This document shows, piece by piece, positions 1,010-64,000 of a stretch of 64,000 nt of DNA. This DNA comes from Isurus oxyrinchus (lineage: Eukaryota). The notes under the pieces are model-generated. The model did no database searches. It was not told the DNA's origin and saw only the letters and a program-made list of their open reading frames with translations. Position 1 is the first letter of the stretch. Each line of letters opens with the position of its first letter. Made by a program: the position numbers and the translations under genes. The stretch lies in assembly GCA_026770705.1 (NCBI GenBank), contig JANJGN010000021.1, positions 42,966,001 to 43,030,000 on the forward strand, read 5' to 3'.

Positions 1010-3886
1010 TCTGTTACTACTGTAGCGCTGAATTTCAAAGATGTTTTCACAGGTCTTGGATATCTGCCTGGCGAATATCATCTTGAAGTAGATGAGAGTG
1101 TGAGAACAACTCAGCATCTTCCGAGAAGAGTTCCAGTTGCCCTCATGTCCAGCCAAAGACAAGATAGAGCAGCTTGAAAAGATGGGAGTAATCAGCAAAG
1201 TGACAACTCCTATAGAATGGGTTAGCAGCATGGTAGCAGTGAAGAAGTCTGGAAAGCTGAGAGTGTGCATAGATCCAAAGGACCTCAATAAAGCTTCGAA
1301 GAGATCCACTATCCCAAGCCAAACATGGAAGAAATTTAGCTGCAACTTGCCAAGGCAAAAGTTTTTATCACCCTAGATGCAGAAAATGGATTCTGGCAAG
1401 TGAAAGCAGCAGCAATTTCCTGACTACGTTCTGGACACCATTTGGGAAGTACGGATGGTTGCGTATGCTGTTTGGCATTTCCACTGCTCTGGAAGAGTGT
1501 CAACGCGACAGCATGCCAATGATCTTCCACGAATGGAAACAACTGTGGATGATCTATAGATGTTTATCGATGTGGAGTTATGATGGAAGAAACCATCACA
1601 GACAATGATCAGAATCCAGAGAGACTCCTAAGGAGAGCTCACCAGGTGAACCGGAAGCTGAGCAAGAAAAAACTGCTACTCAAAATGACCAAAGTCAAGT
1701 GCATAGGTCAAGTGTTGACACCGAAAGGAGTTCACCTTGATTATAATAAGGTGAGAGCTGTAGCAGAGATGCAGCAACCAACAGATGTGAAGGTGGTGCA
1801 ACGATTTGTTGGATCTGTGAACTACCTAGCAAAGTTCTTGCTCAATTTGTCATCAGAGTGTGGACCTCTACACAAGCTCATTGCAAAGGATGTTCAGTAT
1901 TATTGGGGCTCAGAACAAGAAGCAGCTTTCACTCGCGTTAAACAACTAACGACTACAACATCAATGTTGACATACTATGATGTCAACGAGCAGCAGTGTG
2001 ATGCAGATGAGACTGGACTTGGAGCAACCTTCATGATGCAAGGACAACCCGTTGTGTTTGCATCAGGAGCATTAATGCAAACTGAATGAAATTATGCCCA
2101 GATTGAGAAAGACTGCTTCACTATTGTCTTTGGTTGGGAAGATTTTAATCAGTGCCTGTTTTGGGGAGACAAAGTGATGGTGGAATCTGACCACTTCAAA
2201 GCATCTTTCTCAAACTGCTTCTATCTGCTCCCAAAGCAGCTGCAAAGGACATTACTTCATTTGCAGAGCTATCATTTGGAAATGAAGTACAAGCAAGGGA
2301 AGGAGATGTACATTGCCGACATGCTGTCAAGGGCCTCAATCTGTTTGAAATGTGTTGATGACCCTAGCACAGAGTGTGAAATCTTCCACGTTCAATGGGA
2401 AACAACTGCACAACATGCTGTGGAAGTCATCAACCCAGCAGAGACATTGAATTTGACAGACAAGCGTCTTGCTCAGATCAAGCAAACCACACAAGATTCA
2501 ACTCTCCAATTGATACAGGAATTAGTGATGAAAGGATGATCTGATACCATCAAGGACACACCTGTTGCTATAAAAGTATCAGGCATACAGAGATGAAGTG
2601 ATTGCCCAAGGTGGCACCTTATATAGAGTCACTATCCCTAAGGAGATGAGAAAAGAGATGTTGAAGTGCATCCATGCAAGCCATTGAGAAATTGAGTCTA
2701 GTCTGAGGAAGGCATGAAAAATGCTTTATTGGTCAAAAATAAGCAATCAGATTAAGGACCACATCAGGCAGTGCAGTGTTTGTAATGAATATCATGCTAA
2801 GCAAGCTAAAGAGCCACTCGTGACATCCCAGACAGGCCATGGATGAAGCTTGGAGTAGACCATTTCACTCTGTTTGGAACTGATTATCTCATCACTGTTG
2901 ACTCATACTCAGATTACTGGGAGTTAGGCAAACTGACATCAATGACTGCCAGTGAGATTGTATAATGCCAGAAAGCATACTTCAGTCATCATGGCATTCC
3001 TGACATTGTTATGAGAGACAATGGCCCTCGGTTCACAAGCGAAGAATTCAGACACTTTATGAATGATTGGGAAATAAGTACTGCACATCTTCTCCACACT
3101 AGCCCCAGTCAAATGGAAATGCTGAGGAGCAGTGAAAATTGCCAAAATTGCTAAAGGCATGGAAAGTAGTCCAGTCCAGTGACTAATATCTCACTGCACC
3201 CAACCTACTCTTCCAATTGTTAAAAAACAACTGTATTCAGAAGTAGTAACATGAGAAAGTGACAAAGCTAAAGTGAAACGAGAGCCAAATTTCACTTTGA
3301 TAAAGCTGCCAAATCATTGCCAGAGTTGGAGAACTGATCAGGGTGTAAACATTCAATGTGTTCAAAAAAAGTCAGCCCCCTTGGCAACTTGGAATCTGTG
3401 TAAAAAGCAATTGTTGCCTTGATCATACACGGTGAAAATGAACGCCCAGATATATTGCCAAAGCTGCAGACAAATACATGCAATTGGAGAAACTGCTCCT
3501 TCGCAGCAGTCAGCTGACGAGGAAGAACTGATTTTGGCAACTGGACAAAGGATGGAATGACCATCAGTCGCAGAGGTCAACTGCTCTCCAACAAATACAA
3601 CTGATCAGCAATAACATTCTCCAAAGAGGCAAAGCCACCTCAGGAGCCAGCAGGCACCAGACAAACAACCAAAAACAACCTGCAGATGCACGCGTATCAT
3701 TAGAAAACCTGAACGCATTAAAGATTATGTATGTAATGTATGTGTAGGGACAGACAAAACTGAGACAGCTTTGAATGAACGGTTTTCTGTTCATGCTTGA
3801 TGACTCTCTCTGATTGTGTATGTTGGTAACTTGCAAATGCAAATGTGCATGCAATGCAATTTTTTCTTTTTATGAAAAGGGGGAAG

Positions 3887-7809: not shown

Positions 7810-9058
7810 TCTATGGGGTCGCCTCACTGCATGTTGCCATCATCCTCCACAAATCTAGCACCTGTGAGGGTTACCTGACTGCGTCTGCCTTGTCTAGCCA
7901 GTGCGAGGGCCTCATCCCTGCCAAAGTTATCTCCAAGGATCTCCTTAGCCTCATCCCCATCGGTGTCATCCTCATGGGAGGAGACGTGCAGCCCCTCCAT
8001 CTCTTCCTCAGCCAGCTCATCTTCTCATTTGAGCAGACACTGATGATGTGTGACACTCTATTTTGCAGGGCTCCACCAGACTGGCCCAAGTACTGGAACC
8101 TCATCTTCAGCATCCCGATGGTTTGCTCCACTGAAGTTGCAAGCTGCAGCATGAGTTTCATTATACCGTCACTCTGCTGCAGTCTGAGGCTGCTGCACGG
8201 GTGTCATCAGCCACGGCCTCTGCGGGTAGCCCTTGTCTCTGAGGAGCCATCCCTGCAGCTTGTGTGGACCCTGGAAGACTCCAGGGATCTACAGCATCTG
8301 AGGATGTAGGAGTCATGCACACCCTCTGCAAACCGTGCGCACACCTGCAGGATGTGTTTCTGGTGGTCGCACACCAGATGCACATTCAGCGAATGGAAGC
8401 CCCTTCGGTTGGTGAAGTCCACCATGTGTTGTGATGGAGACCTGAGCACCAGATGAGTGCAGTCAATCGCACCCTGCACCTGTGGGAATCCCAAGATCTG
8501 GGCGAATCCAATCGCTCTTGCATCCTGGCTGTCCTGGTCCCTGGTGAAAAGCACAAAGTTGTGTGCCCTCACAAAGATGGCATCCATGACCTCATGGATG
8601 CATTTGTGGGTGGAGGCTTGAGAGATCCCACAGAGGTCACCAGTGGAACCCTGAAAGGAACCACTGGCATAGAAATTAAGCCCCTGCTGTTACTTTCACA
8701 GCCACTGGCAGTGGATGCCCTGCATGCCCCAGTGGCGCCAATTCCTGCAGTAAATGGCAGATGTGAGCAACCAGTTTCCTAGACATTCACAGTCTTTGGA
8801 GACGCTGGTCATCTGCAGGAATGACAGGCGGCCTCTATAAACCCTGGGTGTCACTAGGCACAGACCTGCAATGGCTCGCTGTGGCTCTTGGGCGGAGTGT
8901 GTGGGAGCCCCAGCCAACCCTTTTTCCTGAAGTTGCTGCTCCTGCCTTTGCATAGCCAGGAGCCTCTGTCGCTCTCTCCTCCGTCTTCTTAGCACTCTGT
9001 AGGCCATCAGGCATAGAGTTAAGTCACCAGACACGATGATCCTGATGTGCTCCTGCAG
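7810..9058 (-). pseudogene. Harbinger DDE transposase (HARBI1-like), degenerate
   Basis: GFPQVQGAIDCTH, NRRGFHSLNVHLVCD, GVHDSYIL, VEQTIGMLKMRFQYL motifs spread over several frames. Confidence 0.9.
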
Positions 9059-11470
9059 GATGAAAGAGAGAGACACTTGGTTAGCATGGGTGTACTAAGA
9101 ACCTGTCCTGGTTAAGTGTGACGGCCCCTTAACGCTTCCTGGAGAGTGCTGGCAAGCACTTGGATGGCCAGAGATTAGTGCACTGCATGGCTGCCCTGTT
9201 AGCTTGAACCATGGTGGAGAGTTAACCAAACTGGGATGCTGACATTGCAAGGAGCTGTGAGTGCCTCCAGAAGTGACTGCTACATGGCCAGCAAGGAGAT
9301 TGTACAACGTGTGCAGTCTAACTGTTCTGCAGTCCACTAAAATGCTCATGAATTTGCAGTCTGTGCTGGGGCAGGGCTGGGAGGGGGGCAGCTCTGGAGA
9401 ACTTGGTGACACTTTGATGCCTCTGCATTGCTTGAGTGGGCAGATAGGCTAGGAGCCAACCCCAGTCATATCAATGTGGCTGCACCTGAACTGTCTCGGT
9501 CGCAGAGGAATGGTCACTTTCTACAGCTTTTTCCAATGTGTGGCCACTTCCCTCGCCCACCCTACCCCCTCCACCCCGAATGCTTATGTGCTACAATTCA
9601 ACGGCAGGGCTGCTCTTACCCCTCCCCTCGTCACCAGTTGCCTCAACAGCAAGGCTGCACTTGCCCCCGCTCACAAGTCACCTCAGAGGCAGGGCAGTAC
9701 TTGCTCCCTGCTCCCCCTCACCCTCAAAAGTCACCTCCGAGGCAAGGTGGCACTTAACCCCGACCCCCTGGTGTCCCTGAAGTTTACAAAGTAACAGGTG
9801 ACCCTGGCAAACTCTGCAGAACGTTGCTGTTCACTTACTTCCAGTTCACCCAAAGTGCAGGCCGCCAAGTGCACGTTGCTTTTGTGCTGTTGTGAAACAC
9901 ATCAGCGTGCTTTCCCGCTGACATGGACGGACGATCCAGCAGGGGTGCAGGAACCTGTAGGGATGGGCTGATGATGATATGCTGATGTATTAAATGAGGT
10001 TCCTGATGACAGGAAACGTGACCTGCTGTTGGCAGCCTGAGCGGACAATCGTGACCTGCCTTCCCACCATCGTGAAACCAATCATGCCATATTTTCTGCG
10101 CATGCCACCTATCATGCCTGCTGCCCTGTGGGCACGGAAAATTCCACCCTAGGTTTGAAATGCTGAATATGTTAACATGGTTGAAGTTTTAAAATGAGAG
10201 GTGTGAAGAACATTTGCATTTTTAGACAAACCCAAGTAGTGAATTTCAAAGAGATGGTAAAGTGTTACACCTAGCCAACAGAGGCTAAGCCAAACACTGT
10301 GTTTATTTTTCCCAAAGATTACTGATAATATGAGTGCTAGGAAAGATTTATATTATGGAAAAAATAAAGTTGCAAAGACATATTGGAACAATGGGATTTA
10401 CATTAAAAAGGGAGAAACCTGTATAAAGGAGATGAAGTTATGTGTAAGAAGAAGGCATTCTAAGGTCCAACAAGTGTGAAAAGTCTCCAACCTCTATGTA
10501 CCAAGCTGCTGTCTTCAGGAACTGAAGCTAAGAGAATTCATTTTAAATATTGTGTGCTTTGCCTGGGTCTGTTGAAATCTATGTTGTTTTACTGTTGCCT
10601 TGAAAGAGGTGTAACTGGAACCTAAATTAATTGGGGGATTTAGGAGTTATTATAGTAGTGATTTGTAGACCTATGTATTTATTATATTAATGAATGTTTA
10701 ATTTAGTTTTGTAAATTAAGCCTCTAAGACTTGGTGGTCTTATTACTACTGAATTCAAGGCATGCATCTCAAAATAAAGCTACAAATTGCAAAACAGTTG
10801 TGGCAGCTGTTTCAAGTTTCCCTCTGGGACTTGAGCAGCTCAGCATTTACCATCCACTGTTCCATAACATGGGTAAGTATATAACTGAACCCCAATCACT
10901 CATGTTGACCACCTCAACTCTCCCCTCAATTGCCCAACTCCCCGCAGACCTGACCTAACTCTCCCCCACCACCAACAACCTCAAACATCATGTCTCTCCC
11001 CAGACCCGACCTGACTAGTCTCTCCCACCCAACTGCCTCCCTGCTTACTGGACTACCTTCCCAATTTTCCCCGACACCCCTAACCTAACCTCACCACCTT
11101 ATCCACCTACCATCCTACCCAGCTACCATCATACCCCTTGCTCACTTACCTTACTCACGCTACCCCCTTACACACGTACTATCTCTCTGTAGCTTTTCAA
11201 AGAAACTTTGAGATATTTAAGCTCTTGCCAGAATACAGCATCAAATGCCATAAAAGGGGGGCATGGCTTCTGCGTGGAGTCTCTCCACTGCTCCCTTCAA
11301 GGTTCCCTGCAATGACTCAGTTCTGTAGGATCTTCCATCAGATGGTTGCCCAGAAAAATTGGAGGAAGGTAAGTGGGTATTATTTTGTCTGATTAAGGTC
11401 GGAAATAGGGATTCTGAGCCTAAATGGAAGATTTGGGCCTTTACGTTGATCAGATTTTGCTTTCAAATTT

Positions 11471-14400
11471 AGAGGCGATGATGCAGTGGTATTGTCACTG
11501 GACCAATAATATAGAGGCCCAGAGTAATGCTCTGGGGACCCAGGTTCGAATCCCGCGGCAGATGGTGGAATTTAAATTCAATAAAAATCTGGAATTAAAA
11601 GTCTAATGATGACCATGAAATAATTGTTGACTGTTGTGAAAGCCAATCTGGTTCACTGATGTCCTTTAGGTAATGAAACCTGACATCCTTAGCTGGTCTG
11701 GACTATATGTGACCCCAGACCTACAGCAATGTGTTTGACTCTTAATTGCTCTTTGAACAAACTGCTACAAAGTCACAGAAAAGGAATGAAACCAGACAGA
11801 CCACCCAGCATCGACCTAGGTACCAGAAGTGGCAATTGCAGCCCTGTCAACCCTGCAAAGTCCTCCTTACTAACATTTGGGGGCAAGTGCCAAAATTGGG
11901 AGAACTGTCTCATATCCTAGTCAAGCAACAGCCAGACATAGTCATCCTCACGGAATCATATCTTACAGTTAATGTCCCAGACACCACCATCACCATCCAT
12001 GGGTATGTCCTGTCCCATCTGCAGGACAGACCCAGCAGAGGTGGTGGCACGGTGGTGTACAGTCGAGAGGGAGTTGCACTGGGAGTCCTCAACATCAATT
12101 CTGGACCCCGTGAAGTCTCATGGCATCAGGTCAAACAGAGGCAAGGAAACCTCTTGCCGATTACCATGTACCACCCTCCCTCTGCTGATGAATCAGTGCA
12201 CCTCCATGTTGAACATTACTTGGAGAGAGCACTGAGGGTGGCAAGGATGCAGAATGTACTCAGGGTGGGGGACTTCAATGTCCATCACCAAGAGTGCCTC
12301 GGTGGCACCACAACTGGCCAAGCTGGCCAAGTCCTAAAGGACATAGCTGCTAGACTGGGTCTGCAGCAGGTGGTGAGGGAACAAGAGGGAAAAACATACT
12401 TGACCTCATCCTCACCAATCTGCCTGCCACAGATGCATCTGTCCATGACAGTATTGGTAGGAGTGACCATCGCACAGTCATTGAGAAGATGAAGTCCCAC
12501 CTTTACATTGAAGACATCGTCCATCATGTTGTGTGGCACTACCACCATGCTAAAGGGGCTAGATTTTGAACAGATCTGGCAACACAAGACTGGGCATCCA
12601 TGAGGCTCTGTGAGCCATCAGCAGCAGCAGAATTGTACTCGAACACAGCCTGTAAGCTCATGGCCCAGCATATCCCCCACTCTATCACCATCAAGCCAGT
12701 GGATCAACCCTGGATCAATGAAGCATGCAGGAGGGCATGCCAGGAGCAGCACCAGGCATACCTAAAAATGAGGTGTGAACCTAGTGAAGCTATAACACAG
12801 GACTACTATCATGCCAAACAACAGAAGCAGCAAGTGATAGACAGAGCTAAGTGATCCCACAGCCAACGGATCAGTTCTAAGCTCTGCAGTCCCTGCCACA
12901 TCCAGTCGTGAATGGTGGTGGACAATTAAACAACTCACTGGAGGAGGTGCCTCCACAAATATCCCCATCTGCAATGATGGAGGAGCCCAGCACAGCAGTG
13001 CAAAAGATAAGGCTGAAGCATTCACAACAATCTTCAGCCAGAAGTGCCAAGTGGATGATCCATTTCGGCCTCCTCCGGAGGTCCCCAGCATGACAGATGG
13101 CAGCCTTCAGCCAATTCGATTCACTTCACTTGAAATCAAAAAACAGCTGAAGGCACTGAATACTGCAAAGACTATGGGCCCTGACAATATTCCAGCAATG
13201 TACTGAAGACTTGTGTTCCAGAACTTGCTGCGCCCCTAGCCAAGCTGTTCCAGTACAGCTACAATACTGGCATCTACCAGGTTATGTGGAAAATTGTCCA
13301 GGTATGTCCTGTACACAAAAAGCAGGACAAATCCAAATCACCAATTACCGCCCCATCAGTTTACTCTGAATCATCAGTAAAGCAATGGAAGGGGTCTTCA
13401 ACAGTGCTATCATGCAGCACTTGCTTTGCAATAACCTTCTCACTGATGCCCAGTTGGGTTCCGCCAGAGCCACTCAGCTTCTTACCTCATTACAGCCTTG
13501 GTTCAAACATGGACAAAAGAGCTGAACTCCTGAGGTGAGGCAAGAGTGACTGCCCTTGACATCAAGGCTGCATTTGACCAAGTGTGGCATCAAGGAGCCC
13601 TAGCAAAACTGGAGTCAATGGGAATTGGGGGAAAACTCCCCGCTGGTTGGAGTCATTTCTAGCACAAAGGAAGATGGTTGTAGTTGTTGCAGGTCAGTCA
13701 TATCAGCTCCAGGGCATCATTGCCGGAGTTCCTCAGGGTAGTGTCCTGGGTCCAACCATCTTCAGCTACTTTATCAATGACCTTCCTTCCATCGTAAGGT
13801 CAGAAGTGGGGATGTTCGCCGATGATTGCACAATGTTCAGCACCATTTGCAACTCCTCAAATACTGAAGCAGTCCATGTCCAAATGCAACAAGACCTGGA
13901 CAATATCCAGGCTTGGACTGACAAGTGGCAAGTAACATTCACACCACACAAGTGTCAGGCAATGACCATCTCCAACAAGCAAGAATCCAACCATCACTCC
14001 TTGATATTCAATGGCATTACCATAACTGAATCCCCCACTATCAACATCCTGGGTGTTACCATTGACCAGAAACTGAACTATATGGACTAGCCATATAAAT
14101 ACTGTGGCTACAAGAGCAGGTCAGAGGCTAGGAATTGTGCGATGAGTAACTCAACTCCTGACTCCCCAAAGCCTGTCCACCATCTACAAGGCACAAGTCA
14201 GGAGTGTGATGGAATACTCCCCACTTGTCTGGTTGAGTGCAGCTCCCACAACACTAAAAAAGCTGGGCACTGTCCAGAACAAAGCAGTCCACTTGATTGG
14301 CACCACATCCACAAACATTCAGTCCCCCCACCTCCGACTCACAGTAGCAACAGTATGTACCATCCACAAGGTGCACTGCAGTAATTCACCATTGTTCCTT

Positions 14401-14733
14401 AGACAGCACCTTCCAAACCCACGACCACTGGCACCTAGAAGGACAAGGGAAGGCAGCAGATAGATGGGAACATCACCATCTGGAGGTTCCACTCCAAGTC
14501 ACTCACCTTCCTGACTTGGAAATATATCACTGTTCCTTCACTGTTGCTGGGTAAAAATTGTGGAACTCGCTCCTTAACAGCACTGTGGGTGTACCAACAC
14601 CTCATGGCCTGCAGCGGTTCAAGAAGGGAGCTCACCACCACCTTCTCAAGGGCAACCAGGCATGGGCAATAAATGCTGGTCCAGCCAGCGAATCCCACAT
14701 CCCATGAATGAATTAAAAAAAAACAAAAACAAA
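11471..14733 (+). mobile_element. Near full-length CR1/L2-group LINE (APE + RT, no ORF1) with a tRNA-like 5' head, degenerate
   Basis: APE motifs NIWG, PDIVILTES, GGGTVVY, GDFNVHH, SDH; RT motifs GVPQGSVLGP and FADD; 3' tail AATAAA...ATGAATGAATT followed by an A-rich run. Exact clade not determined. Confidence 0.9.
11479..11553 (+). promoter_or_regulatory. tRNA-type internal Pol III promoter (A and B boxes) at the LINE 5' end
   Basis: A-box-like TGATGCAGTGGT (11479-11490) and perfect B box GGTTCGAATCC (11543-11553). Confidence 0.75.
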
Positions 14734-17280: not shown

Positions 17281-18005
17281 GGCCTGAGTCTTACTCTCAT
17301 CGGGTGCACACGATCGCGGGCCCCAAAGTGGACGCGAAATGTGCTTCTGGTCACGATCGGCCTCCAAATGCAATTTCACGCTGCCAGTGTGAAATGTACA
17401 CTGGAAAAGCCCCAGTGCCATCAGGGAAGGCAGAAAGAGGGCGGGTGCTAACAAAAATGAGGGTGTGGGTGGACACTTATAGCGAGTTCCCTGAAGGCAG
17501 ACAACTGCTGCGGAGCTGCAGACCTGTACATATTAAATGACAGGAAAAAAATACAGCAAGCACATTCAAGTACCTGACAACAGAACTCAATAAATATCAG
17601 TCCCCAGATATCATTTTTTAATTATATTTCTCCCCAGACATTTCATCCCGCCCTGGTCAAGGTTTCAGTGAAAGTGTGAAGGCTGTCAACTGTCCACTGC
17701 CACCTTTTGAAGGGCAACTAGGCATGCGCAATAAATACTGACCCAGCCAGCAAAGCCCACATCCCATGAATGAATAAGAAAAAAGTGAATGGGCCACATA
17801 AAATCGATTACAGTTGCCTCCTTAATGGGCTTAATTGCCCACTTGATTGTCGGCAGACCTGCCTTCAACTGCCGCATGTACCTGCCGAGCGAAATATTAT
17901 GTGAGTGCGTGATGACGTCGGGATGCACACCCAATGTCTTCTCGCCTGATTTCACGTGTTGTCTGGTCGGGCACATGCCCGCACAGCCAACATAAAATTC
18001 TGGCC
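17281..18005. mobile_element. Harbinger-type MITE
   Basis: Ends GGCCTGAGTCTT / AAAATTCTGGCC, TSD ATG; homologous to the 322-1009 family. Confidence 0.8.
17686..17785 (+). mobile_element. 5'-truncated 3' tail of the LINE family at 11471-14733, inserted in the MITE
   Basis: GCCACCTTTTGAAGGGCAACTAGGCATGCGCAATAAATACTG...CCCACATCCCATGAATGAATAAGAAAAAA matches 14632-14723. Confidence 0.85.
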
Positions 18006-56417: not shown

Positions 56418-59400
56418 GGGGAAAACTGTCTGTACCCACTGGCGTCGGGTGAGTTTGGTGGTGTGAGCAGACAATATGGCAAGAAGGCCAAAAATTGGTT
56501 TCACGATGTTGTGAAAGCAGTTTGCGATTGTCTGCTCTACCCACAGATGGCAGGCCACGTATCCCGCCATTGGACATCAGGAGCCTCATTGTAATATATT
56601 TCCATTATTTCCATTTCATTATAAACATAGCCCATTGGAATCATTCCCCACCCCCGCCCCCCCACCCTGCTGGATCGTCCACCCGATGCGTTTCATACAT
56701 ATAATAGGTGTGCACTTGGTGGGCTGCACTTAGCGGGGAACTGGAGGTAAGTACAGAGTAACATTGCGGAGCACTCGCCCAGGTCGCCTGGTGCACTTCA
56801 GGGTTGAAGCGCATTCAGAGGAGGCGGCGGCAAGGGCTGCCCTGCAGTTGACGTGACTTGGGGGGATGGGGCAAGGGCTGCCCTGCAGTTGAAGGTACCG
56901 CACAAGCACATGCAAGAGTTGGATAACGAGGGAAGCGGCTACACATTAGGCGCAGAGTTTGCCCTCGGCGTGCAGGATTAGCAGTGATGGGCAGGTGCAG
57001 TCAGGAAGCTGACCGCTGTCCACGATTGGCAGCACTGCGCGATTTTACACGGGCGAGCCAATTAAGAGCCACCCAGTCTGATACGCGAACGGTGGAACTG
57101 AGCCCTGCCTGTGGGGCCGGGGCGGGGAGTGTGAGCAGCCTAGCGCGAACTTCATGCATGCGTGCGAGAGAGCACAGAACAATCTCCCTGAGGCACTGAG
57201 CTGCCTCGGAGAGATGAAGAATATTTTGAACAAATTATTGATCATCGGAAAAATTTAATGAAACATGTCCCCTCATTCCCCTCGTGTGACTCTCTCACAT
57301 GAGCAGGGACGTGTTTTTAATTAAAAAATGCAGTTTTTATTTTATTTATGTTTGCTTTTGGAAACCTCAACCCATACGTGGATGAGGTTTCAAAAAAATG
57401 CAAAGGCTGCTTGGTCTTTTTGCCTGCCCACCAACTATTAGGTTGGATGGGCAGTGAAAATTTAAACTCAATTGATAACTTAATGGCCTTAACAGGCCTT
57501 TTAATTGTTGGTGGGGCGATGCTGACTCCGTTGCGCACCTGCCGACCGAACTACCGTGCGACTGCACATTGACCTCAGCACGCTCGGCCAACATCATTGC
57601 GTGTCATTTCACACTCAATCTGGTCGGGCACACGCCCACCCCACTGAGCTAAAAATTCTGGCCTAGGAAAACCTTGTATAAAGTGACCATTCTTCTGCAA
57701 CGAAGACAATTCAGGCACAGCCAGATTGATATGATTGGAGTCAGGCCTCTAGCTTCTCCACCCACTCAAGCAACGCAGAGGCATCAAATTGACACCGAGT
57801 GCTCCAGAGCTTTTTACCCCTTGAGCACAGACTGCAAACTAATGAGCATTTTACTGGACTGCAGAACAGTTGGACAACTGGGCACTTGTACAATCTCCTT
57901 GCTAAAGCTGACCATAGAGAAGTCACTGGTGAGGCGCACACAGCCCTTTGCAATGTCATCATCCCAGTTTGGACCAGCCTTCTTGATAGTTCAAGCTAAC
58001 AGTGCAGCCTTACAGTGCAGGTTAGGAGAATGTCTGTGCCTGAACTGAGAGCACAGCATGCAGTCCAATGGGCAAAGCTGCTGCTAATTGGTCCAGTGGA
58101 ATGGGCGGAGGATGGTGGGGTTTTGGGCAGCCACGCAATGCACTGATCTCTGGCCATCCAGGTGGTGGGCAGCACCCCGTGGGATGTGTTAAGGGGCCTT
58201 CAGACTCAACCAACACAGGTCCTTAGTACACCCATGCTAACCCATGCATCTCTCTCTTTCATCCTGCAAGAGGAGTACATCAGGATTGTGGAGCCTGGCG
58301 ACCTAACAGAATGCCTCGTGGCTTACAGACAGTGAAGAAGACTGAGAAGAGAGCAACTGAGGCACCTGGCTGCACAGAGGCAGGAGAAACACCCTCTGGA
58401 AGAATGGATGACTGGGACTCCCGCACATGCCACCAAAGAGCCACAGCGAGCCATCGTTAGTCAGTGCCTAGCTATACCCAGGGTCTATAATGCCGTCTTT
58501 CATTCCTGCAGATGATCAAGAACCAGTGTCACCGAGACTGTGCATGTCTAGGGAACTGGTTGCTCACATCTGCCAACTGCTGCAGGATTTGGCACATGGG
58601 GAAATGGAGGGCATCCACTGCCAGTGGCCGTGAAAGTGATCACACCACTCAATTCTATGCTAGTGGCTCCTTTCAGGGCTCCACAGGTCCACAGGTGACC
58701 TCTGAGGGATCTCACAAGACTCCACTCACAAATACATCCATGAGGTCACGGATGCCAGCTTCGTGAAGGCACACAACTTTATGCATTTTGCTCGGGACCA
58801 CGACAGCCAGGATGCAAGAGCAATTGGATTTGTCAAGATCTCAGGTTTCCCACAGGTGCAGGGTGCGATCGACTGCACTCACATGGCGCTCAAATCTCCA
58901 TCACAACACGCAGTGAAATACACCAACTGCAAGGGAATCTATTCGCTGAATGTGCAGTTGTTGTGCGACCTCCACAAATGCATTCTGCAGGTCTGCGCAT
59001 GGTTTCCAGGGAGTGTGCCAGACTCCTACACCCTCAGTTGGTCTCAGAGCCCTGAAGTCTTCCAGGGTCCACAGAAGCTGCAGGGATGGCTCTTCAGGGA
59101 CAAGGGCTACCCGCAGAGGACGTGGCTGATGACACCCATGCGGCGGCCTCAGACTGCAGCAGAGTGATGCTATAATGAGGCTCATGCTGCAACTTGTAAC
59201 TTGGTGGAGCAGACCATCGGGATGCTGAAGATGAGGTTCCGGTACCTGGACTGGCCTGGTGGAGCCCTGCAGTGCAGTCCGCAGAGGGTATCACGCATCG
59301 TGATCATTTGCTGTGCCCTTTGCAACCTGGTGCTGCAACAGGGGTTGTAGCTGTCTAAGGAGGAGCTGGAGGAGCTGGAGGTGTCCCCTGATGAGGAGGA

Positions 59401-60205
59401 TGCGATGGGGATATGGGCGAGGAGGTCCTTGAAGGCCACGATGACGGGGATGAGGCCCTCGCACTGGCCAGACGAGGCAGTCATGCTTGGGAGGCCCTCA
59501 TAGCTCCTAGATTTGCGGAGGATGATGACGACATGCAGTGAGGAGGCACCATATATCCTCACATTACTTTTATGAACATTTGACCCCAGTCTGACTTTGG
59601 CAATGCACATAGCCTCTGTGATAATACTCCTGTCATGGGGATGCAGTGGAGGCCCAAATAGTCCATCGATTGCAGGAGGATGATGATAACATGCAGTGAG
59701 GACTTTTCATAGATCTTTGCATAGCCTCTGAGAATGTTTGACTCTTCTCTGGCCAAGGGCAGCTCATTTGCACTCTGTGATCAGGGCTACGTCATAAAGA
59801 TGTAGCCATGAAACTTTAAAAGCGCCTGATCCTTTGTCCAACTTCAGCATCTGACCCCTTCAGGAGCACAGCGTCACTGGTCACAGATGCTGAAGAGATG
59901 GGGGCCAGCCACACCTTAAAGGTGCTGAGAACACACAGAGAGAATGAGGATCAATGATCTCCTCCGTTCCCCCAGGGTAAGTGACTCATCTCATCACTCT
60001 CAACTCACACACTCACAAACCCATCACACATCCACAGGGCCCTCACTCACTGCCAGTTCAAGGGACATCACTGTTCACTCTCTTACACACAGACCTTCAT
60101 TGTCCCCATCCCATCCATGGGACCATTCACCATCCACACATGCCAGGCATACTTATCATCTGGCCTGGCAAGTGCCATGCTTACACTCTCTCCATCTCTA
60201 TTCAT
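56418..60205 (+). mobile_element. PIF/Harbinger element, same family as 5585-10149, opposite orientation, truncated and rearranged
   Basis: 56418-56700 matches the reverse complement of 9900-10149. Transposase 58270-59560: GFPQVQGAIDCTH, YSLNVQLLCD, FRDKGYP. Confidence 0.88.
56950..57663. mobile_element. Harbinger-type MITE inside the Harbinger element
   Basis: Ends GCGCAGAGTTTG / AAAATTCTGGCC, TSD TAG. Confidence 0.8.
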
Positions 60206-60865
60206 GGTGGTGAAAAAGGCATATGGGACACTTGCCTTTATCAATCGAGGCAGAGATTGCAAAAGTAGGGAGGTCATGTTGGAATTGTATAGAACCTTGG
60301 TGAAGCCACAGCTGGAGTACTGTGTGCAGTTCTGGTCGCCACATTATAGGAAGGATGTGATTGCATTGGAGGGGGTGCAGAGGAGATTCGCCAGGATGTT
60401 GCCTGGGATGAAACATTTAAGTTATGAAGAGAGGTTGGATAGACTTGGATTGTTTTCTTTGGAGCAGAGAAGACTGAGAGGCGACCTGATCGAGGTGTAC
60501 AAGATTATGAGGGGCATGGACAGGGTGGATAGGGAGTACCTGTTCCCCTTAGTTGAAGGGTCAGTCATAAGGGGGCATAAGTTCAAGGTGAGAGGCAGGA
60601 GGTTTAAGGGGGATGTGAAGAAAAACTTTTTTACCCAGAGGGTGGTGATGGTCTGGAGTGCACTGCCTGGGAGGGTGGTGGAGGCGGGTTGCCTCACATC
60701 CTTTAAAAAGTACCTGGATGAGCACTTGGCACAAATTAACATTCAAGGCTATGGGCCAAGTGCTGGTAAATGGGATTAGGTAGGTAGGTCAGGTGTTTCT
60801 CACGTGTCGGTGCAGACTCAATGTGCCGAAGGGCCTCTTCTGCACTGTGATTCTGTGATTCTGTG
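60206..60865 (+). mobile_element. Young CR1 LINE 3' fragment
   Basis: Open frame VVKKAYGTLAFI...LVKPQLEYCVQFWSPHYRKD...GYGPSAGKWD*; tail (CTGTGATT)n. Confidence 0.93.
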
Positions 60866-62071: not shown

Positions 62072-62740
62072 AACATATGTAGGAGCAGGAGTAGGCCACT
62101 CAGCCTCTTGAGCCTGCTCCGCCATTCATTGAGATCATGGCTGATCTGAATATAATCTCAACCCCATATTCCTGCCTACCCCTGATAACCTTTCCCCTCC
62201 TTGTTAATCAAGAATCTATCTAACTCTGCTTTAAGAATATTGAAAGACTGCTTCCATCGCATTTCAAGGATGAGAGTTCCAAAGACTCTGTGAGAGAAAA
62301 AAGCTCTCCTCATCTCTGTCTTAAATGAGTGACCCTTTATTTTTAAATACTGACCCCTAGTTCTATATTCTCCCACAAGAGGAAACATCCTCTCCACATC
62401 TGCCCGGTCAAGACCCCTCACAATCTTAAAGGTTTCAATTGAGTCACCTCGTACTCTTCTAAAATCCAATGGATACAAGCCTAACCTGTCCAGCCTTTCC
62501 TCATAAGACAACCCGCCCATTCCTGGTATTAGTCTAGTAAACCTTATGTGAACTGCTTCTAATGCATTTACATCCATCCTTAAATAAGGAGACCAGTATT
62601 GTACACAATACTTCAGATGTGGTCTCACCAGTGCCCTGTATAGCTGAATAACCTCCCTACTTTTGCAATCAATTCTCCTCACAATAAATGATAACATCCT
62701 ATTAGTTTTCCTAATTACCTGCTGTACCTGCATACTAACC
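62072..62740 (-). mobile_element. CR1 LINE 3' fragment
   Basis: ORF 62176-62733: LYRALVRPHLKYCVQYWSP. Confidence 0.9.
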
Positions 62741-63797: not shown

Positions 63798-64000
63798 TTT
63801 TTCTTTATTCTTTAGTGGAGTGTGTGCATCACTGGTAAGGCCAGCATTTGTTGCTCATCCCTAATTGCACTTGAACTGAGTGGTTTACTCACCCATTTCA
63901 GAGGGCAGATAAGAGTCAACTATATTGCTGTGGGGCTGGATTCACATGTAGGTCAGGACAGCAGATTTCCTTCCCTGAAGTTCATTAGTGAACCAGATGG
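63798..64000 (-). mobile_element. SINE sharing its body with the 5' end and its tail with the 3' end of the LINE at 11471-14733; runs off the window
   Basis: Reverse complement: CCATCTGGTTCACTAATG...ACAGCAATATAGTTGACTCTTATCTGCCCTCTGAA (matches 11645-11757), then TCAAGTGCAATTAGGGATGAGCAACAAATGCTGGCC...GAATAAAGAAAAA (matches 14646-14720). Confidence 0.85.

Follow-up and report, generated by a model that had tools for sequence, protein, structure and literature searches.

SINEs and LINEs are divided by promoter and coding capacity, the former being non-coding with RNA polymerase III (Pol III) as their transcribing enzyme, the latter being protein-coding and transcribed by Pol II. The LINEs tested to date are reported to use Pol II (PMC1874656). 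At positions 11471 to 14733 of the stretch of Isurus oxyrinchus DNA analyzed here (64,000 nucleotides, hereafter the window), a tRNA-type promoter stands at the head of a LINE, and a preliminary description had proposed an autonomous element without ORF1 expressing its reverse transcriptase (RT) from a Pol III transcript. The locus raises the question whether head and LINE form one element or are chance neighbors and, if they are one element, by which polymerase it was transcribed.

All parts named in that description, namely A and B boxes with the B box at 11543, a SINE-like body, an APE endonuclease, an RT, and an A-rich tail, were located on the forward strand, the A box in a decayed form. 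The tRNA-derived head (11472–11562), recognized with ARAGORN under relaxed settings and by a 5′ boundary at 11472 common with other copies, in better-kept copies adopts a cloverleaf fold that resembles tRNA-Thr(AGT) and has a long variable arm; the G-run preceding the boundary is lost in the window copy. Variants of the A box (11479–11489, decayed here) were compared across 31 LINE and 22 SINE heads, and the B box GGTTCGAATCC (11543–11553), perfect here, shows CpG-decay variants in other copies. The head is followed by a body common to the LINE and the genome's SINEs (11563–11757), which is not a Deu, Meta or UCON3 domain, and by a LINE-specific linker (11758–11860) with a conserved ATG at 11786, which does not lie in the reading frame of the endonuclease; read in that frame, the linker encodes an Arg-rich stretch. 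Both enzymatic domains are broken, the APE endonuclease domain at 11860–12480 (PF03372 and PF14529, E ~3e-6; Pfam matches spanning 11872–12411) and the RT domain at 13200–14065 (PF00078 (RVT_1), E 1e-16 at 13635–14063; upstream limit approximate, from alignment to relatives). The C-terminal part of the single ORF (14066–14659) was delimited by column-wise reading frames in 128 fragments and has the family stop at 14657, which is mutated in the window copy. In the 3′ tail common to LINE and SINEs (14647–14714), AATAAA is located at 14668–14673, and the T position before the A-rich tail (14715–14733) holds at least four T in about one fifth of the copies. Because only about 390 nt lie 5′ of the endonuclease, no ORF1 fits into this copy, as had been claimed. 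The copy is dead, with 8 frameshifting indels and 6 in-frame stops, and diverges by 7.9% from the column-wise commonest letters.

The window also contains a 3′ tail fragment of the same family (17700–17784, forward strand) and a long-type SINE of the same family (63798–63998, reverse strand), which is cut by the window end. Two forward-strand regions (59985–60779 and 62176–62739) are, judged from their motifs, presumably CR1-type LINE fragments, the first of which represents the control family used below. Decayed ORFs at 8207–8689 and 58706–59167 (forward) are presumably pieces of Harbinger/PIF-type transposases, and an ORF piece at 1553–2089 (forward) we take to resemble a Gypsy-type RT/RNase H region.

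A junction query against the 4.98-Gb genome resulted in 6,955 candidates, of which the best 40 were scored. Among these best 40, 26 of 29 non-self loci reached the head start to within about 45 nt, and 16 of the 29 began at the equivalent of 11469–11473 with unrelated flanks. An exact 24-mer of the head-to-endonuclease junction had 1,430 genome matches, compared with 0 for the reversed control; the junction recurs in many independent insertions and is not unique to this locus. Upon extension, 13 of 20 junction-anchored loci ran from head to tail, as did 2 of 20 RT-anchored loci, most of the latter being 5′-truncated. Copies are dispersed, their 5′ truncation varies and their 3′ end is constant, which is the pattern of APE-type non-LTR retrotransposons (LINEs); target-site duplications were not evident by eye in 16 full-length copies, and the copies are old. 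In a random sample of 400 kb (40 evenly placed 10-kb stretches) the family together with its SINEs made up 6.1%, two head-bearing LINE copies were included, and no sister families were evident. The family was also present (presence only) in assembled contigs of sequencing runs labelled as four organisms, and one contig of a run that bears another organism's label (D) bridges head end, linker, and endonuclease start. A scan of viral contigs revealed no locus of the family.

To avoid selection for the head, 69 copies were chosen by the endonuclease alone (29 plus 40 of 150). Here, 21 aligned to the head start, 15 of these at the same 1–2 bases, while 33 stopped within the head (in 4 of them the head start is present beyond an internal deletion), and the remaining 15 ended in the linker. 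Neither another common 5′ sequence nor an ORF1, which canonical two-ORF LINEs of the CR1/L2 type have upstream of the endonuclease, was found in any of the 69, and the only adjacent upstream DNA that copies had in common was that of the head or, in one case, of a duplicated locus. Two findings that would have spoken against the preliminary description, a junction unique to this locus and full-length copies with an ORF1, were not obtained. Head and LINE are one real high-copy family, and a chance SINE neighbor is very unlikely.

Several copies deviated in their structure. Eight of the 69 (L033, L035, L041, L053, L057, L265, L269, and L290; flanks unrelated) are 5′-truncated in a stretch of about 12 nt immediately upstream of the conserved ATG (equivalent of 11775–11790), compared with about 1.5 expected (scan-corrected p ~0.006); the cluster may mark a site where the RT drops off or the RNA is cut, or else a second start. 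Five copies (L056, L058, L059, L254, and L278) have the same head as the others and a second linker type just upstream of this ATG, which points to subfamilies. At the other end, a 56-nt unit including window positions 14554–14607 is amplified as tandem arrays in L122, L124, and L135, and in L122 a 3.9-kb block with a truncated copy is itself tandemly repeated.

With default settings, ARAGORN detected no tRNA within the window. With relaxed settings (-ps90), a tRNA was called in 26 of 56 family heads, 17 of these as Thr(agt) with a long variable arm, and in 0 of 56 shuffled heads. Picking by the head yielded 29 non-self loci, comprising 7 LINEs, 21 SINEs, and 1 longer two-part form; the genome's SINEs consist of the same head joined to the last ~75 nt of the LINE. 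The head and the short forms have the tRNA-derived head with A and B boxes that defines SINE2 elements, whereas the long form, with 3.25 kb and an ORF of ~950 codons, lies outside the short, non-coding range of that class. Three types of SINE deletion junctions were counted 23, 7, and 1 times in a biased sample of loci, i.e. at least three deletion types of the LINE exist. In a poorly resolved tree of 31 LINE and 22 SINE heads (1 of 53 branches supported; 14 label changes versus 17.3 after shuffling) the two sorts of heads were inseparable, and the tree is silent on the direction of descent. The SINEs probably derive from the headed LINE by internal deletion. An identity of head and body with SacSINE1/Deu was rejected, since the published SacSINE1 head is unlike by eye and the Deu alignment mismatched; a 23-letter Deu pattern matched none of 340 loci exactly, and nothing in the window when 3 mismatches were allowed. 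The Meta and UCON3 domains were likewise rejected for the body, having no match by eye. A link of the SINE to Squam2 is conceivable.

In the column-wise analysis of the 128 fragments, a single frame of about 950 codons, encoding the endonuclease and then the RT, stayed open between the linker and 14657; its only frequent internal stop is a codon near 11827 that arose by CpG decay. Outside CpG sites, the variants that at least 15% of copies have in common comprised 27 synonymous and 18 non-synonymous changes, with 28 of the 45 at third positions, and a rough weighting gave omega ~0.27 for these 45 shared variants compared with ~1.4 for private ones. Therefore, the replicating lineage kept the protein under purifying selection. 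No intact copy was found in a non-exhaustive search covering 150 + 150 scored matches, 17 long copies, and a motif search; the longest open frames had 603 and 531 aa (150 scored matches each), all 17 long copies were broken, and fragment divergence ranged from 2.5% to 19% with a median of 7.4%. The proposal of an autonomous tRNA-headed LINE was thereby borne out with respect to structure, recurrence, and purifying selection on the ORF, while the word autonomous applies to past master elements only.

The best protein relatives are 45–49% identical, mostly unnamed proteins including one from Branchiostoma, and many of them sit on 3.2–4.5-kb contigs and start with Met just before the endonuclease. 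Two 3.25-kb contigs of nearest relatives encode 937-aa ORFs, and the nearest relative with available DNA (L161) has no ORF of at least 60 aa in the 949 nt upstream, no B box, and 6.7 T4 runs per kb. Because the relatives also look ORF1-less, the lack of ORF1 is probably ancestral. In a quick tree, the RT fell into a supported group with Branchiostoma and unnamed proteins, apart from what we take to be the genome's CR1. For a comparison with metagenomes, 80 loci, mostly distant LINEs, were collected, 24 without an ORF of 450 aa were dropped and 56 were kept, 4 of these having no more than a weak match to the family protein; no tRNA-like head was detected upstream in 25 near-complete metagenome LINEs (ARAGORN -ps90). 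The lack of ORF1 is not novel, and the head is the new feature.

The sense strand is strongly depleted of T-runs. In the 128 fragments (205 kb), the density of T4 was 1.0 per 3.2 kb compared with 5.5 expected, and runs of at least four that were common to at least half of the copies numbered 0 for T, 16 for A, 9 for G, and 11 for C. Observed/expected ratios of TT, TTT, and TTTT were 0.76, 0.40, and 0.17 for the family versus 1.08, 1.18, and 1.30 for CR1, the only family used as same-genome control, and the conserved T4 sites number 5 in 2,158 nt of CR1 versus 0 in 3.3 kb of the family. The respective minima among the 56 metagenome ORFs, which are more T-rich, were 0.88, 0.75, and 0.34, all above the family values, and T-run depletion at p <0.05 was found in 3 of the 56. 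In-frame T4 runs numbered 3 compared with 43.8 in synonymous shuffles for the family, and 52 compared with 73.5 for CR1. Weak terminators were depleted, too (TCTTT 0.23, TATTT 0.16). The single TTTT of the window copy (12564) falls on a site of CpG decay, and the same TTTT is present in 15–17 of 70 copies (about one fifth). Because all copies descend from few masters, the absence of T4 amounts to about one observation, and the chance of zero T4 taken as one sequence is below 1 in 300 with base shuffling and 0.02–0.06 with dinucleotide shuffling (5 of the 17 long copies), the synonymous null expecting only about 3 T4 runs in the ORF. As in a Pol III unit, the family's sense strand lacks internal oligo-T terminators. 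Oligo-T has been purged from 3.25 kb, and Pol III transcription is the probable cause.

At the 3′ end, AATAAA is present in 51 of 62 LINE tails. At least four T directly precede the A-tail in 14 of 62 tails (13 of 61 independent ones), compared with a background of 9% at comparable random sites (p 0.006), and 48 of 62 have fewer than four. The arrangement may correspond to that of T+ SINEs, which are defined by AATAAA and a T-run terminator before the A-tail and which, in the report describing them, have working terminators in 23–48% of short-tailed copies and are known only from mammals (PMC8466645); the same report states that T-runs can lengthen after insertion. At the 5′ end, no in-frame AUG precedes the endonuclease, the first in-frame ATG being located at 12600. 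The leader contains about 11 conserved ATGs, of which that at 11786 begins an ORF of 35 codons that overlaps, in a different frame, the start of the endonuclease; the distance of this ATG to the endonuclease was 92 nt in 37 of 59 copies, and it was out of frame in 56 of 59. Rfam searches of the window head and ten loci gave nothing relevant, with no ribozyme or IRES match, and the leader folds barely better than shuffled sequences (z −1.55).

Pol III is favored by indirect signs, because full-length copies have one common 5′ base, because no TTTT is conserved in 3.3 kb compared with 5 in 2.2 kb of CR1, because AATAAA and, frequently, a T-run precede the A-tail in the manner of T+ SINEs, and because no in-frame AUG precedes the endonuclease. 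We assign a probability of about 0.6 to the reading that the masters of this abundant single-ORF LINE were transcribed end to end by Pol III and translated their enzyme from that RNA. The polymerase, the polyadenylation route, the translation mode, and the direction of SINE descent are what we infer from the sequence. In the proposed life cycle, TFIIIC would bind the internal A and B boxes, and Pol III would start at the G-run, read the 3.25 kb purged of oligo-T, and stop at the terminal T-run or at the first T-run of the flank. The RNA would likely be polyadenylated through AAUAAA as in T+ SINEs, and translation of the ORF would likely need neither a cap nor an in-frame AUG, relying on internal entry or on a frameshift from the overlapping 35-codon upstream ORF. 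The protein would then prime reverse transcription at the 3′ tail, as LINE proteins do. Since the promoter is internal, internally deleted forms would be ready-made SINEs. A bolder version, to which we give slightly less than even odds, would be an "autonomous SINE", i.e. a complete Pol III gene with tRNA promoter, terminator-free 3.25 kb, and terminal terminator plus AAUAAA, which translates its own enzyme uncapped without an in-frame AUG and gives rise to SINEs by simple internal deletion.

The main rival, which we consider rather unlikely, is a Pol II LINE with a tRNA-derived 5′ UTR. Its head would derive from a SINE, Pol II would start at the head, or would read through with the 5′ end then cut at the tRNA-like fold, e.g. 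by RNase P; the T-poverty would reflect avoidance of splice or decay signals. Such an element would agree with the Pol II transcription of the LINEs tested so far (PMC1874656), AATAAA plus A-tail is an ordinary mRNA signal, the whole cloverleaf is retained beyond the A and B boxes, and a tRNA-like sequence is reported in RTE-1_DAn, in an account giving no position for it (PMC5786205). However, the CR1 of the same genome is not T-purged, CCCC with an observed/expected ratio of 0.78 compared with 0.17 for TTTT is unlike an avoidance of polypyrimidine tracts, and a leader with about 11 upstream ATGs, none in frame, is ill-suited to cap-dependent scanning. As a third explanation, and a clearly less probable one, the two roles could be split: Pol III would make the template RNA, and the protein would be supplied by capped transcripts that Pol II makes by reading through some of the copies, mobilizing the Pol III RNA in trans like that of a long SINE. 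Thereby, the T-purge would be explained without translation of an uncapped RNA, and many copies would lie within host transcripts because the family and its SINEs account for ~6% of the 400-kb sample; yet the purifying selection on shared variants fits better if the copied RNA makes its own protein, and the AUG problem persists in any transcript. A non-autonomous chimera or chance adjacency, in which a SINE was joined to a truncated LINE and the true master would possess ORF1 together with a regular 5′ UTR, is nearly excluded, since, although such template-switching chimeras are described as common (PMC5499810) and the ends of 8 of the 69 copies fall within ~12 nt directly ahead of the conserved ATG, 0 of 69 copies showed another common 5′ sequence, the flanks of those eight are unrelated, and the nearest relatives are also ORF1-less in appearance (the 937-aa ORFs on two 3.25-kb contigs; L161).

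The locus belongs to a real high-copy, now decayed LINE family that has a SINE-type promoter head and what appear to be sequence signatures of Pol III transcription. A protein-coding retrotransposon transcribed by Pol III would be unusual. If the Pol III reading is true, the combination of a Pol III promoter with an ORF under selection in a vertebrate-type element of high copy number would violate the SINE/LINE rule, and the element would be a natural example of a ~950-aa protein produced from a Pol III RNA, with the leader as a candidate element for cap-independent translation. Deletion from a headed LINE would be a second route to SINE birth, and the T+ design of termination and polyadenylation would extend beyond mammals. 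Confirmation of transcription and translation would establish a new category. The literature searched yielded no account of a coding LINE that is tRNA-headed and of the Pol III type; Repbase, Dfam, and subscription journals lay outside this search, and a consensus may be deposited there.

Known systems resemble the family in single aspects. R2 is a non-LTR element whose single ORF is translated from uncapped RNA in the absence of a normal AUG; it is co-transcribed by Pol I, cut out by an HDV-like ribozyme, and has a restriction-like endonuclease, whereas the shark family has an APE endonuclease and no ribozyme match. Single-ORF LINEs of comparable size are already known, i.e. Zenon, Vingi, and Ingi, the latter two being other LINEs without ORF1 (PMC3894237). 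Zenon, a CR1-type LINE with one ORF from Lepidoptera, and Persaeus, its partner with an internal deletion, are, compared by architecture, like the shark family with respect to a length of ~3.3 kb, one endonuclease-RT ORF, a poly(A) tail, and the repeated birth of short derivatives made of 5′ and 3′ parts (PMC6740152). Persaeus is described there as having no tRNA homology or Pol III promoter, whereas the shark family has the tRNA head on long and short forms. The SacSINE1/Deu-SINEs of sharks are tRNA-headed SINEs with a tail common to a LINE, as here (PMC5499810), but the published head and Deu domain of SacSINE1 differ from the head and body of this family. RTE-1_DAn is an autonomous LINE with a tRNA-like sequence, as is the shark family, but belongs to the RTE clade, and the account of it states neither position nor role of this sequence (PMC5786205). 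B2, Dip, and Ves, which are mammalian T+ SINEs, have the tRNA head, the AATAAA, and apparently the variable T-run just before the A-tail in common with the shark family, but they are short, non-coding, and in that report restricted to mammals, compared with 3.25 kb and a protein-coding ORF here (PMC8466645). SINEs in general are stated to be unable to encode protein (PMC5786205). In the bipartite SINEs Bov-tA, derived from Bov-B, and SINE2-1_ACar, derived from Vingi-2_ACar, LINE 5′ and 3′ parts are combined under a tRNA head as in the shark SINEs; in these two, however, the head was added to an already deleted, non-coding LINE, whereas in the shark family the coding LINE itself is headed (PMC4494074, PMC5786205).
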